A stretch of 64,000 nt of DNA, from IMG/VR virus record IMGVR_UViG_3300046463_000247, positions 34,046 through 98,045 of that record; one strand, given 5' to 3'. The position numbers were made by a program, and so were the translations under genes. Positions 2,521-52,300 of the stretch are shown piece by piece. The number at the start of each line of letters is the position of its first letter. The first letter of the stretch is position 1. The notes beneath the pieces are model-generated. The model did no database searches. It saw only the letters and a program-made list of their open reading frames with translations, and was not told the DNA's origin. The DNA comes from a virus.

Positions 2521-2548
2521 GCTTACCCCTGTGCAATTGATTGCAAAA

Positions 2549-3556: not shown

Positions 3557-4291
3557 TTACCCCAGCAGCGTAAGCCGCAAATTGATGCCGATATTCTGAA
3601 AACTGTCCGGGATTTCGTTCGGACAAAGCAGGCTGAGTGCGTCACCCAATGCGAAGACCGTCGAGGTCGCCACGGAGAAGACGCCATTCACCCCATCCTT
3701 CGGGAAGGTGATCGTGCCGACCTTCACCAGCGCCCGCTCAATCGTGATGATCACGTCATCTTCTACGAGCGGTTGCATCAAAATTGCGGCCGATCCCTGC
3801 GCATTGGGCGGCAGTATAGCGGGTTGCAAGTTCGGAATAAACATAATCCGCTCGCCCGGATTCGGCTTAAACATGGCCGAACAGCCGTACTGGAGATAGT
3901 GATTCTGGGCGGGCGGGCCGGTCTGATCGACGGGCGCTCCGGTGCCTGCATCGAGCCACGCCTTGCCGTCGAACCACACCAGCTTGTCGTCCAGCGTCTT
4001 GACACGGAACTGCCACCCGTAGGACGGTTTGAAGAACTTCCACTGGCCTTCGATCTTCACCGCGACTTCGAGGTCATGGCCGGACCACGCCTGCACGGAG
4101 TTCGGCGCACAGATGAAGCGGTCCCCTTCGAGCGCGGTCTGCGGCGGCTGCGCGAGCGTGATCGACTGCACCGCGCCGTGTAGCAGGGTGTCGATCTTGA
4201 CCATGTTCTCGGTCATCGGCCCACCCCAACCGTTTTCCCCCGTGACCCAACCTTCGGACAAGCCTAGGTTGGGCGCTTTCTTTTCTGGCAT
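3557..4291 (-). CDS. DUF2793-domain tail protein
   Basis: PP...EGDRFI...AWSGHD..VAV...GQWKFFKP..GW motif typical of DUF2793; position after the tail tip. Confidence 0.7.
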   Translation of the reverse strand: MPEKKAPNLGLSEGWVTGENGWGGPMTENMVKIDTLLHGAVQSITLAQPPQTALEGDRFICAPNSVQAWSGHDLEVAVKIEGQWKFFKPSYGWQFRVKTLDDKLVWFDGKAWLDAGTGAPVDQTGPPAQNHYLQYGCSAMFKPNPGERIMFIPNLQPAILPPNAQGSAAILMQPLVEDDVIITIERALVKVGTITFPKDGVNGVFSVATSTVFALGDALSLLCPNEIPDSFQNIGINLRLTLLG

Positions 4292-22157: not shown

Positions 22158-22225
22158 GATTCTTACCCCTTAGAATGGTCCAAAACTGTTTGAGTTGCCT
22201 ACTTGCCCAGCACCATCAGCCGCGT

Positions 22226-42046: not shown

Positions 42047-42790
42047 TCACTCCACGTCGATCACGTCGTCCAGCGTGCCTTCCTTCTTGCCGCCCTTGAA
42101 GGTCAGCACCGGCATCTTGCCCTGGAGCGCGTTCAGTCCGACCTGCTGTACCGCGTGCGTCGCGTACGCGTTGATCTCGACCTTGGCGTGCTGCACGACC
42201 GTCTCCATGTACTCGCCGAACTGCTGCGCGACGAATTCGACGTTCGGCTTGACGTTGCGCGACGCGGTGGCGACCTTATCCAGCAGTTCCTTCTTCGCCT
42301 TGACCGACAGGTTCAGCCCTTCAATCGCCTCGCGCAGTTCGGCCAGCGCTTCCATCGAGCGCTCCATCCGCTCGGTCGCCTCGCCACCAAACTGCTCGGT
42401 GCGGCTCTTCGGGTCCGGCAGGCGCGGCGTGTGCTCGCCCTTGACGTGACACAGCGTGCACGGCACGCCGAAGCCGATGTTGAAGCTCGACACGAAGGTC
42501 GCCCACTGCGCCTCCGACATATCGACCTCGATCAGTTCGTTGCCGCCGTGATACCAGTCGTTTGCGAGTTCACGGGTCAGGCTGGAGCGGCGCACGGTGA
42601 GCCGGATAAACTGGTTGTGCTGGAAGTCGCTGCCGTACAGAATCTTTCCGCCGCTCACGCGAGACACGCCGATCATCGCGTAGGCCGGGTGGTGGTACGT
42701 CTTGCCCCCTTTCTTTCCGGCCAGCCCCTCGTCCGTCTCGGTCGGCTCTACCACCTGGCTCCAGATGGGTTTCTCTTTGTCGCTGCTCAT
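42047..42790 (-). CDS. Hypothetical phage protein (~247 aa)
   Basis: Start MSSDKEK with AAGGA SD after the promoter at 42823-42850. Confidence 0.65.
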   Translation of the reverse strand: MSSDKEKPIWSQVVEPTETDEGLAGKKGGKTYHHPAYAMIGVSRVSGGKILYGSDFQHNQFIRLTVRRSSLTRELANDWYHGGNELIEVDMSEAQWATFVSSFNIGFGVPCTLCHVKGEHTPRLPDPKSRTEQFGGEATERMERSMEALAELREAIEGLNLSVKAKKELLDKVATASRNVKPNVEFVAQQFGEYMETVVQHAKVEINAYATHAVQQVGLNALQGKMPVLTFKGGKKEGTLDDVIDVE

Positions 42791-42860
42791 GTTCCGGTCC
42801 TTGCTTGGGGATGTACCTGCACAGTATAACCCAGTCATACGGATTGTCAAACACGCGGGC

Positions 42861-42898
42861 AAAAAAAGACCCGAACCACTTCGAATATGGCTCGGGTC
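42861..42898 (-). terminator. Rho-independent terminator
   Basis: GACCCGAGCCA-loop-TGGTTCGGGTC-TTTTTTT on the minus strand. Confidence 0.8.
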
Positions 42899-43056
42899 GA
42901 AAGTCCGGTTGAGGGGTAAATGACAACCGGGGACCACCGGATGCCGCCGCGCGACCATTGTGCGCTTGCAGCAAATTCTGTTCAGTTCAGGGGACGGGTA
43001 CTCCGCATCGGCGATGTCGCCGGAATCAGACCGCACTCCTTGCAGGCCCTGTATGG
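42861..43056 (-). ncRNA. Candidate structured small RNA (~195 nt)
   Basis: Promoter TTTACA-16-TACACT (43062-43089), five consecutive hairpins, intrinsic terminator at 42861-42898, no credible ORF. Confidence 0.55.
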
Positions 43057-43141
43057 GCTACAGTGTAACACAAGCGACCGGGTTGTAAACACGAGGCGTC
43101 CGCCAATCGCCAGCGGGTGTGCGCCAGACCGCATATTGGCC

Positions 43142-43459
43142 CTATCGGACCGGGTTCGGGCGTGCGCTTTTGCAATCAATTGCAAGCCCGGCTTCCGCCG
43201 CGTCTTCCGCCGTCACCACCACCCGCGCCAGCCCCTGCCAGTTCGCCAGCCGCGTATTCAGGTTGCGGGCGGCTTCGACCAGCCGGGGCCGGTGGGTTTC
43301 GATCACGTCGCACTCGGCGGGCGTCGCGTAGTTCAGCAGCGTCGCGAGTACTTCGCGTTCCAGCGCCATGAAATCTACGACGATTACCTGCTGATCGAGC
43401 GTCAGGGACCGGGGCCGCAGGTCTGGTTTCCCTGGCAGGTGAATCGTCAGCTTGCCCAT
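43142..43459 (-). CDS. Hypothetical protein
   Basis: 105 aa with a purine-rich SD. Confidence 0.5.
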   Translation of the reverse strand: MGKLTIHLPGKPDLRPRSLTLDQQVIVVDFMALEREVLATLLNYATPAECDVIETHRPRLVEAARNLNTRLANWQGLARVVVTAEDAAEAGLAIDCKSARPNPVR

Positions 43460-47451: not shown

Positions 47452-47730
47452 CGTTCGGTTGCCCTCTGGGTTGTGATTGTGTAAGGGTCATTGTGCCCTC
47501 ACTGTAAGGGATTGTCAAACGCTCTTTGCAATCAGTTGCAAAAAAGCCCCTTGCGGGGCCGGGTGTTGCGGTGGAGTGCGGGCGCGATCAGATACGCAGG
47601 AGTTTCGCCGGGTGCGCGGTCCGGTAGCTCGTGTCGGGGGTGTGCCGCTCGGGCGCGCGGGGTGCCTCGGCCTTCAGCAGACCGACCGCCAGCAGGAACC
47701 CGGCGACGAGGCCGATCAGGATTCCGCGCT

Positions 47731-49332: not shown

Positions 49333-49376
49333 TTCCCGCACTCCTTGCAGTAGGTTGTTTTGTTGACTACCCCTGT

Positions 49377-52300
49377 AGTATAGCACAATCGCTGGTTTAG
49401 TCAAACAATTGCAATTGATTGCAAAACCCGGTCAGCCCAGCTTCTCCCAGTCGCCCCGCGCGATTGCGGCCTTGCTGACGAACCACGCCATCAGCGCTTT
49501 CAGTTCCTCGAAGGTTGCAGCCGCCTCGATGCGCTCGCCCAGCACGTCGCGGGTGGCGTCGTCCCAGTAGTCCTGCGGGGTATCGTACGAATACTGGCGG
49601 GCGCGGTTCGCGATGCTGGCCTCCAGTTCAGCGAGGTCTAGTTCGTAGCTCATGCTGTACCTCTACCATACGCGGCGCTGAACTCGTGCATCAGCGTGAT
49701 CGCTACTATCTGGAATGCCGCCGACTCCGGTTTGCCTTCGAAGCGGCGGGCGTATTCGCCGTACAGCGGCTTGTCGGTGAGCACCAGCAGCAGTTCCAAC
49801 CAGGAGAGCCCGCCCCGCTCTGCGAGCCTGTCCACGGTCTGCCCGTGGTTTGCCAGCGCCTGCTTCTCGTGGCGCTTCACGAGGTCGTACGGCACTACCA
49901 GCGGCGAGTGGAAGTGCTGTTCCCGGCACCGTCGCACGCATGAGTCCAGTATCGGGAACGTCTTCATGCCGCCTCCAGCACGCGCTTGCCACCCTTGAAC
50001 GCGAACGCCACCGGCTTGGCAGGCGGGACAAACGGCTCAGCCAGTACGGTGCCGCCCTCGTCAGTCAGCACGCCAGGCTGGCCGAATGCGTTGACCATCT
50101 GCTGCGCCTCGATGTGCGCGTCCTCGATCATGCTGGCGTCGAGCTTCTGGATGCCGGGGCCGATCTTCAGGCGGAAAGGTTTCTTCATGGCCTCAGCCCC
50201 CCAATGCTGCTTGCGTAGAAGCCGTCCGAGTACTCCAGCACCCGGTTGCTCATAGTGTCGTCCGTCGTTTCCACCAGCAGCAGTTCGCCGTAGCGTCCGT
50301 CCGCCTGGGAGTACGCCTCCAGCACTATTCCATGCTTGCGGCATACCTCGGCCAGTTCGTCCACTGCGGCCTGTAGCTCTTCTTTCGTCTTCATGCTCAG
50401 TCACCCCACCGGCTCAGGTCTTCGTCCACCGCTTCTTCCGGCGTATCGTCTTCCTCGCGGTCTTCCCAGAGCGCCAGTGCAAAGTCGCGCGCCTGCGGGG
50501 TCGATACCCCTGCCCTGTCCACGTAGCGGGTCGTGGCCCGTGTAATCCATTCTTCCTTCGTCATCCTATGCCTCGAATTTATGGCCGACAGCGATGTCTT
50601 CGGCCTTCATCAGAGTATCGCACATGATCTCGGTCTCCGACTCCCGGCCCCATGAGTTGTACCGCACCTTCACCCACCAGTGCCCGTATTCGTAGCGGGG
50701 CTGGGCCAGCACGCGCACCACCACGCAGTCCACGAGGTTCATCCGCCGTTCTCCCGGTCGTCCTGCACCAGAATCTGAATCGCCGTCTCGCCACCCTGCA
50801 CAATGCGCTCTTCCAAGGTCTGCGTGGAGAAGCCCCGGTCGATCAGGGTCTGGTAGGCGTCACGCTCCAGCACCGCCTTCTCGGCTCGGCCTAGCGCGCG
50901 CTCGTACTCGCGCAGCGGGCGGGTCACCAGCAGGTCGGTGCGGAGATTGGCGGGCAGGTTCTTCAGCACCTCCATCGCGAGCGACGCCTGGCTGAGGTCC
51001 TTGTACTGACGCATGCGCGCGGCAATGCGGGCGAGTTCGTCGGCTGCGTGTTGCATGCCCGCTGCGATCTGGTCGATCACCTCGGCAGTCGGTTCGACGT
51101 TCAGTTGCTGGGTCATGGTGCCACCGCCTTGTAGCCACGGTCGTACACGATGCGCGCCACGACTGCGTACGTCTCGGCGTCCACGATGTTGGCGGTCTCG
51201 CACAGGTTGCGGCAGCGGTCCACCGCCTCGACCTTGGCTTCTTCGAGTTCGGTTGCGTGCATCGGGCGCACGACCCCGGATTGAAACGACAGGACCAGTA
51301 TCACGGTGCCTCCTGAAAGAACGACCAGCACGCCCAGCCGGGCGAGGTCTGCATGTTGATCTTGCGGCCCACGTCGGCCTTGCGGATATGGTACGTCGCG
51401 TGGCCGTGGCCCAGGTAGTTGGGCTTCTGCGCGCCGATGTCCGACTCTTCTATCTCGAACGTCTGTTCATCGAACGTGCCATCACCGCCCCACGCGTTCT
51501 TGCGCGTCACGCGCTTCTTCTCGGTGAGTGCTTTCATGCGAAAGGCCCCTCCACGTAAATTTCCTTGCGGATCGTGCCCGGGTAGCTCACCACCGTTGAC
51601 ACCAGCCGCAGGCACGTCCCCACGTCGATGTTGGCGGGCACCGGCTCGTTGCCACCGTACAGCACGTCGGTGATGTACTGCTCCGTGCGCCCGTCCTGCT
51701 TGAGGATCACGCGGGCCGCGTTGCATAGGGCGTCGCGGTCGTTCACGCGGACGAAAGTCTTGACCTCGTACAGGTTGCTCGCCATCACAGCGGCCCGAAG
51801 TCGTTGGTCGGCTCGCGCTCCATGCCCGAGTACTTGGTCCACAGCTTGTCGTTGAACGACTCGTAGCGGGCCACGTTGGCGATGAAGGTCGGGGTCGGGA
51901 AGGTGCTGTACGCGTCACGCGGGCGGAACACCTGCTCCAGCGTCTCCGGGTTGTTGCCGGTCAGGATCGCGATTTCCCGCAGGAAGCCCCCTGCCACACG
52001 GTTGTACTGGTAGCACGCTTCGGCCCACTCGCGCATCAGCTTCTCGCCGTCCATGTCCGGCCCGAACAGGTTCTGGAACGCAGTGTCCACCTGCTCATAC
52101 ACAGGATTCAGTAGCTTGGCGATCTCGAAGATGCGCTTGGCGTGGACGGTGATCGGTGCGGGCGTGCGGCCCGTCTGAGTGCCCTTGTCCATCGTGTAGG
52201 TCTTGGGATCGAATCGGTCGTCTGACTCAGGTGCCTTGGGCGTCATAGCCGCTACGTGGGCGCTTGCCGCCTCTTCTGCGGTCTTGCCCAGCCCGAAGTA

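Follow-up and report, generated by a model that had tools for sequence, protein, structure and literature searches.

Does a 351-nt gap (43141-42791) in the early region of a phage genome hold a small RNA gene of its own, and on which messages would such an RNA act? The stretch analysed here (the window, 64,000 nt) was taken from a 98,045-bp IMG/VR record with a 60-bp terminal repeat and 62% GC. A crude gene call over the whole phage genome placed 103 of 116 genes on the minus strand, hereafter the coding strand, and the layout is siphovirus-like according to PHROG matches, among them DNA polymerase, portal, tail proteins and a capsid-type protein (phrog_1623). The genome is otherwise tightly packed, and the candidate sRNA unit (minus strand, 43089-42861) is located in an early region of small ORFans, between the following two genes:

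43142-43459, minus strand: upstream gene, 105 aa, of no family and unknown function (gene call and family search)
42047-42790, minus strand: downstream gene, 247 aa, phrog_6452, of unknown function (PHROG)

The nearest named relatives of the 247-aa protein (KVR21694.1, WK13_34720) and of a CsrA-like protein encoded elsewhere in the window (KVR21706.1, WK13_34780) share ~62% identity with their respective counterparts and are both encoded on one 98,836-bp contig of Burkholderia ubonensis, suggesting that the host of this phage is probably a Burkholderia. An identical 247-aa protein is encoded on 10 contigs, and scans of viral, genome and metagenome contigs and of plasmids returned only relatives of at most 55% identity. 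Homologs with 31-47% identity were seen on 356 plasmid records (277 predicted to be conjugative), among which are megaplasmids of Pseudomonas and Burkholderia and many plasmids of enterobacteria; the protein, of unknown function, is widespread on mobile elements.

Promoter, terminator and coding potential of the unit

The elements that delimit the unit are as follows:

43062-43089, minus strand: sigma-70-type promoter of the phage's own family, TTTACA, 16 nt, TACACT, with a TGn extended -10 (PWM and family alignment)
42862-43055, minus strand: predicted transcript of ~190-194 nt, with its start placed ~7 nt past the -10 box and its end in the T-run
42861-42898, minus strand: intrinsic terminator, 12-14 bp stem (42898-42868), 7-nt loop, T7
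42823-42850, minus strand: separate strong promoter of the 247-aa gene, TTGACA, 16 nt, TATACT, 11/12 (consensus match)
42982-43008, minus strand: 8-codon ORF, ATG to TGA, with no SD and no coding signal, sharing its frame with two codons past AGGAG, CTG at 6 nt and ATT at 9 nt

The original prediction had assigned the unit a promoter of the same family as others in this genome, and such a site was found, with its -35 box at 43089-43084, its -10 box at 43067-43062 and a TG preceding the latter. When scored with a PWM trained on 14 other strong family members, the tested site being left out, it reached 18.8 bits, which corresponds to rank 19 of 98,009 minus-strand positions, while no plus-strand site attained this value. 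Under an extended consensus the sigma-70-like family comprises 34 promoters on the coding strand and 7 on the other. Judging by the position of the -10 box, transcription would start at ~43055.

The site is nevertheless weaker than the 14 training promoters (18.8 vs 29-46 bits), and its -35 and -10 boxes match the consensus at 9 of 12 positions. Both observations are in keeping with an alternative in which the gap is a long 3' UTR that might be processed into a 3'-derived RNA, an origin described for ncRNA1 and ncRNA2 of phage PAK_P3 (PMC10914365). The genome-wide rank of the promoter, its extended -10 and the presence of an SD hairpin at the family-typical distance past it all speak against such a 3' UTR, which we regard as quite improbable. 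Elsewhere in the window, a gap at 47730-47545 gave the appearance of a long 3' UTR before a terminator at 47560 and was discarded, as it is filled by a ~47-codon ORF (47731-47590, minus strand) with a GTG start and a hydrophobic N-terminal stretch.

The strong terminator claimed for the unit is likewise present, and the coding strand of the 98-kb genome has only ~7 intrinsic terminators that rate as strong, this one included. Since the 247-aa gene has its own 11/12 promoter, the unit is predicted to be transcriptionally self-contained, and this promoter-terminator-promoter layout occurs in only this intergenic gap of the genome. The junction between terminator tail and downstream promoter (T-run, GCCCG.G.GT, TTGACAATCCG) recurs outside the window at genome 8104-8136, 91% identical over 33 nt, where it lies after an ordinary gene; apart from this junction, no second copy of the unit was found in the phage's own genome.

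A short terminated RNA ahead of further genes is also known from phage lambda, whose pR'-tR' '6S' transcript measures 194 nt and is terminated unless Q acts. The unit resembles lambda 6S in that it would yield a ~190-nt promoter-proximal RNA with a strong terminator upstream of further genes. It differs in that the downstream gene has a strong promoter right after the terminator and in that no antiterminator structure competing with the terminator was seen in the full-length fold. A lambda-type terminated leader awaiting antitermination was rejected on account of the 11/12 promoter directly past the terminator.

As regards coding potential, GC3 across the 351-nt gap varied between 0.52 and 0.62 in all six frames, compared to 0.78 and 0.88 in the flanking genes, and a PHROG search with the longest frame of the gap gave no match. 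The 8-codon ORF noted earlier is indeed present at 43008-42982, and the absence of a usable start codon after AGGAG was borne out, with no ATG, GTG or TTG within 15 nt. A small protein gene was rejected on these three grounds (no start codon close to AGGAG, flat GC3, no PHROG match), and the unit is non-coding. A less conventional variant would have the SD hairpin drive a 15-codon peptide from the CTG or ATT, or the 8-codon ATG ORF, with which both of these codons are in frame. Such starts are non-canonical, the ATG lacks an SD, coding bias is missing, and, given the base composition, a frame staying open for 15 codons would turn up by chance in about half of all cases; we therefore consider a micro-ORF highly improbable.

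Taken as a candidate, the unit would be a stand-alone early trans-acting sRNA of ~190 nt, which is the reading we favour, albeit tentatively and with somewhat less than even confidence. The family promoter, the lack of a coding signal, the strong terminator and the separate promoter of the next gene argue for the stand-alone part of this proposal; apart from the terminator, its fold proved no better than that of shuffled sequences, as detailed below. The sequence itself shows the anatomy, the lack of a coding signal, the quality of promoter and terminator, the predicted accessibility of the loop and its complementarity to several RBSs; production, accumulation and action in trans of the RNA are inferred.

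Predicted fold and complementarity of an open loop to ribosome-binding sites

The hairpins retained in the predicted RNA, and the candidate target sites located in the window, are:

43009-43022, minus strand: hairpin CGGCG-ACAU-CGCCG, nested in a longer irregular stem, pair probabilities 0.57-1.0
42942-42973, minus strand: robust central hairpin, present in MFE, centroid and MEA structures
42905-42930, minus strand: hairpin 4, 7-bp stem CCGGUUG/CAACCGG (p 0.8-0.96) with a 12-nt loop, UCAUUUACCCCU (42923-42912)
22163-22170, minus strand: candidate target site AGGGGUAA, RBS of the capsid-type gene (phrog_1623); pairing with the loop yields net -9.1 kcal/mol
2523-2530, minus strand: AGGGGUAA RBS of a phrog_2448 gene (345 aa), candidate target, net -9.4 kcal/mol
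3557-3563, minus strand: GGGGUAA RBS of the paralogous phrog_2448 gene (334 aa), net -7.1 kcal/mol

The whole unit folded at z = -2.99, a value owed to the terminator. Without it, the 156-nt body gave z = -0.61, with 53 of 200 shuffles folding equally well or better, so that the earlier description of a structured RNA is left without statistical support. Individual hairpins fared unequally. The first one proposed (GCCC/GGGC, 43058-43046) begins 4 nt past the -10 box, and is therefore likely to span the transcription start, so that the RNA would contain only part of it. The CGGCG/CGCCG hairpin (43022-43009) and the CCGGUUG/CAACCGG hairpin (42930-42905) were both recovered, and the central hairpin at 42973-42942 was absent from the original list.

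The loop of hairpin 4 was ~99% unpaired, with an opening energy of 0.0 kcal/mol. Its segment UUACCCCU (42919-42912) is, as had been claimed, the exact complement of AGGGGUAA at the capsid RBS (22163-22170) and at the gene starting at 2520 (2523-2530), and the same complement also occurs at two RBSs outside the window (genome 15345 and 5884). In fact, all six coding-strand copies of GGGGTAA in the whole genome are RBSs, each located 2-5 nt before an ATG. The genes concerned, according to PHROG assignments, encode the capsid-type protein, two phrog_2448 paralogs, a UvsX-like recombinase, a ParB-like protein and a 63-aa ORF.

Translation initiation regions (TIRs) were ranked by loop-only hybridisation with opening energies, which replaced a full-length RNAduplex ranking with accessibility that was noisy and in which the capsid message paired via a different part of the RNA. 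In the accessibility-corrected, loop-only ranking, the six GGGGUAA RBSs occupied ranks 2-7 of 119 TIRs (-7.1 to -9.6 kcal/mol net), and rank 1 was taken by a seventh RBS, GGGGUGAGUGAUG, at genome 13793. The seven together ranged from -11.5 to -7.1 kcal/mol net, which are modest energies, and all seven predicted duplexes span the stretch from SD to start codon.

The caution originally attached to the 8-nt match, that it might be due to chance, is justified for any single match, since a match of this length to some TIR was found in 11-15% of controls. It does not extend to the set: an accessible 8-mer matching at least three TIRs turned up just once in 400 dinucleotide shuffles refolded for accessibility, and among coding-strand 12-mers at a rate of 0.1%. 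A cruder duplex-energy test, with a 20-nt hairpin-4 probe against all TIRs, was not significant (P 0.04-0.16). By the shuffled and genomic controls, though not by the duplex-energy test, the multi-RBS complementarity of the open loop is probably more than a chance occurrence.

The proposal that the RNA would pair with late-gene RBSs is strengthened in one respect and needs to be qualified in another. A whole class of RBSs is matched and ranks near the top; this class, however, includes the UvsX-like and ParB-like genes and is not confined to late functions. The mixture of structural and DNA-metabolism genes among the targets provides no clean temporal logic.

A longer match was also seen outside the window. 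At genome 30311-30299, 7-19 nt before the ATG of a 152-aa gene starting at genome 30292, there is a 13-nt perfect complement to sRNA bases 120-132 (UGGUCCCCGGUUG). It uses the 5' arm of hairpin 4 and is thus poorly accessible, and it may be fortuitous, since three 13-mers were found in all.

The orphan SD hairpin and a CsrA-like protein

Three further entries bear on the 5' end of the unit:

43031-43045, minus strand: orphan SD hairpin with AGGAG loop, CUGCA-AGGAG-UGCGG, identical to the RBS hairpin at 49336-49350
62119, 58373, 49346, 45152, 39989, 34080 and 17719, minus strand: examples of SD-hairpin sites with an AGGAG loop
34898-35155, minus strand: 85-aa protein, putatively from a divergent CsrA-like family, that may bind AGGAG hairpins (family-level profile links)

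The coding strand carries 20 AAGGAGT sites closed by stems of at least 4 bp, 19 of which have a start codon 4-11 nt further on; the copy at 43045-43031, CTGCAAGGAGTGCGG, identical over 15 nt to 49350-49336, is the only one without. Stems within this set co-vary and are 4-7 bp long, AGGAG forms a 5-nt loop, and the consensus reads CA-AGGAG-UG. Three relatives have only 5-6 comparable SD hairpins each. The 15-mer SD hairpin pattern itself proved unspecific in IMG/VR, with at least 115 unrelated matches. The hairpin claimed for the unit is therefore sound as regards sequence, but less so as regards structure: it forms in nascent RNA of 28-60 nt and is outcompeted in the full-length fold, where its probability is 0.02-0.11.

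Promoter, spacing and SD hairpin of the unit align with five other early-gene 5' modules, which suggests that its 5' end is an early-gene cassette devoid of an ORF. The same alignment, in which the unit differs only by the missing start codon, is one argument for a relic, that is, the leftover promoter and SD hairpin of an early gene which has lost its ORF, fused to a terminator that shields the next promoter from the upstream early operon. A short RNA may then still exist, with no function in trans and with a merely coincidental loop match. The unexceptional fold of the body (z -0.61), the homologous terminator-promoter junction following an ordinary gene at genome 8104-8136 and the failure of Rfam, blastn and nhmmer searches to find a homolog of the unit are all consistent with such an origin. 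On the other hand, no frame retains any leftover codon bias, which argues against a recent pseudogene, the phage is otherwise tightly packed, and a fully accessible loop matching several RBSs is rare in controls (0.1-0.25%). We regard the combination of relic and insulator as a serious, if on the whole unlikely, alternative to an active sRNA.

The active sRNA that we favour had also been credited with titrating a CsrA-like protein, and here the evidence is divided. The 85-aa protein alone gave no CsrA match, and PF02599, the Pfam CsrA model, had no match in the six-frame translated genome. A profile built from the protein and two homologs, by contrast, retrieved 413 representatives (family members measure ~85-100 aa), and 22 of 74 aligned members matched PF02599 at E ≤0.01. 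Profile matches of the family in the PDB were CsrA chains only, both weak, and aligned at the N-terminal strand and the RLAFEAP..I.IxR motif. In a structure search of the ESM Atlas, the 85-aa protein matched CsrA-named clusters with TM 0.80-0.83. An AF2 model was poor in single-sequence mode (pLDDT 53), and all-beta with a pLDDT of 92.9 when 74 sequences were supplied. Foldseek comparison of this model to the PDB returned no CsrA and no match at E ≤0.001, a null result that is uninformative because CsrA is an intertwined dimer fold.

The phage's own copy has a threonine, T84, where 68 of 74 family members have arginine; in HMMER alignments this column corresponds to the Arg of the conserved HR motif of solved CsrA chains, which we take to be R44 of E. 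coli CsrA. By sequence, the family looks like a CsrA-type N-terminal strand and a C-terminal AP..I.IxR motif with a ~40-aa insertion between them. CsrA-family genes have been annotated earlier in Burkholderia phage CSP3 (orf23) (PMC10269572). A CsrA-like identity is thus supported by the profile evidence as a lead at the level of the family, with a caveat for the copy encoded here.

With 3 GGA triplets in 194 nt, compared to ~3.5 expected by composition, and a single canonical hairpin site, GGA is not enriched and the RNA does not qualify as a Csr/Rsm-type sponge; this candidate was rejected on these grounds and on the low probability of the hairpin in the full fold. The unit resembles CsrB/C and RsmX/Y/Z in its GGA hairpin loop, which is of the kind seen at regulated RBSs, and in that the genome encodes a putative CsrA-like protein. 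It is distinguished from them by having one canonical site instead of many, by its ordinary GGA content and by the lack of an Rfam match, and membership in these families was rejected.

A more modest version would have the AGGAG hairpin serve as a decoy for whichever factor recognises the 19 SD hairpins, the 85-aa protein being the candidate, thereby buffering or timing its repression. The identity of the hairpin to a real RBS hairpin, its status as the only orphan of 20 and the consensus with co-varying stems, which presumably resembles the CsrA SELEX site, are in its favour, as are the size of the protein family and its profile and structural links to CsrA (413 representatives, 22 of 74 matching PF02599, CsrA as the only PDB profile match, Atlas TM 0.80-0.83). 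Set against these are the single canonical site in an RNA whose GGA count is about what composition predicts, the hairpin probability of 0.02-0.11 in the full-length fold, and the protein itself, with no CsrA match of its own, a T84 in place of the common Arg and no CsrA among Foldseek results from the PDB. In addition, a single site would have to be carried by a very abundant RNA to outcompete 19 mRNA sites. A protein decoy is in our view rather improbable. As to the titration originally claimed, the CsrA link of the family lends it weak support, and the lack of a match for the phage's own protein, its T84 and the single site weigh against it.

Comparison with known RNAs and proposed mechanism

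At the gathering threshold, Rfam 15 gave no match across the whole window, and a permissive search (E ≤10) produced nothing real, with a best score of 20.0 bits compared to a gathering score of 49.5. A tRNA and tmRNA search was negative. In blastn against 50,697 phage records the neighbouring protein gene alone was matched, weakly. Seven related IMG/VR records, picked by a dispersed TTGCAA-N4-TTGCAA motif, were retrieved in full; in three, core genes match those of this phage at 40-60% amino-acid identity. The early region is not common to the seven, no early-region gene being shared, and the 247-aa gene is absent from them. In these records, whose early regions are unrelated, blastn found no copy of the unit DNA, and no analogous unit with an anti-SD loop or orphan SD hairpin was seen. 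An nhmmer search with the unit against 2.7 Mb of fetched loci gave no match at E ≤10.

The dispersed motif is itself conspicuous. It takes the 16-nt form TTGCAA-TCAA-TTGCAA and, as TTGCAA-N4-TTGCAA, has 24 copies in the genome compared to 0.001 expected (for instance at 49409-49424, 43170-43185 and 2531-2546 of the window), often 4-9 nt ahead of the -35 box in promoters of the family. Between 6 and 21 copies are present in each of the seven other IMG/VR records, which range from 38% to 61% GC. A conserved phage regulator that binds DNA probably uses it as its site.

Two Rfam families of Betaproteobacteria, RF02837 (anti-hemB) and RF02278 (toxic sRNA), gave weak cmscan alignments over hairpin and terminator. 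This combination is the general shape of Betaproteobacteria sRNA 3' ends, as in these Burkholderia-type families. Membership was rejected at 20.0 and 17.7 bits, respectively, compared to gathering scores of 49.5 and 50, the match being mostly terminator.

Trans-acting sRNAs of the Hfq type occlude RBSs by means of an accessible C/U-rich seed, and DicF is a prophage example. Like these, the unit has its own predicted promoter, a Rho-independent terminator with U-tail and a predicted length of ~200 nt; its accessible seed is rich in C and complements the stretch from SD to start codon in several mRNAs. Unlike them, it has no homology to any curated family, and its seed is placed in a 12-nt hairpin loop. 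No Hfq gene was found in the phage.

Very few sRNAs of non-temperate phages have a known function (PMC4933390, PMC10914365). The non-coding RNAs sRNA1 and sRNA2 of PAK_P3 were found by RNA-seq and Northern blot (PMC4933390, PMC10914365), and phage RNAs derived from 5' and 3' UTRs by ONT-cappable-seq (PMC10914365, PMC4933390). In PAK_P3, trans base-pairing was proposed from a short perfect match of 11 nt (PMC4933390, PMC10914365), and the PAK_P3 report of Putzeys et al. 2024 describes ncRNA1 and ncRNA2 as 3' UTR-derived (PMC10914365). The unit is comparable to the PAK_P3 RNAs as a short intergenic non-coding unit of a lytic-type phage for which trans pairing is proposed from short perfect matches. 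The PAK_P3 RNAs, however, appear to be processed from UTRs and have been seen as RNA, while the unit is known from sequence alone, comes with a promoter of its own and is located among early genes. From these comparisons, it is a phage-encoded sRNA candidate, which is a known kind of element, and a member of no described family.

Under the sRNA reading, host RNA polymerase would transcribe the unit early from the promoter at 43089-43062, and the terminator at 42898-42861 would end the RNA. The 3' module would be organised like that of a base-pairing sRNA, with a stable hairpin whose 12-nt C-rich loop stays open, then a short spacer containing U, and finally a U-tailed terminator. The loop UCAUUUACCCCU would pair across the SD-to-start-codon stretch of mRNAs with a GGGGU(A/G)A RBS, for which seven targets are predicted (the capsid-type gene, two phrog_2448 paralogs, the UvsX-like and ParB-like genes, the 63-aa ORF and one replication-module gene). 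Such pairing would hinder 30S binding, and translation of the targets may be delayed or damped for as long as the RNA is abundant. The 5' end, probably derived from an early-gene cassette of promoter and SD hairpin without its ORF, may still bind ribosomes or a factor recognising the 19 mRNA hairpins.

A more ambitious version joins both ends into a two-headed regulator within a phage Csr-like circuit, in which the 5' AGGAG hairpin would compete with the 19 mRNAs and the 3' loop would mask GGGGU(A/G)A RBSs. We give this combination little credence. If it were true, one early RNA would time two translational regulons, the second of which would contain capsid, tail-associated and recombination genes.

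The candidate is a sequence-only prediction from an uncultured phage, and it offers a concrete target set of seven RBSs with one common motif, in a genome that also holds 19 gene starts with the SD in a hairpin and a CsrA-like protein. Should it prove to be expressed and active, it would offer a tractable example of how a phage-encoded factor controls capsid and recombination genes post-transcriptionally.
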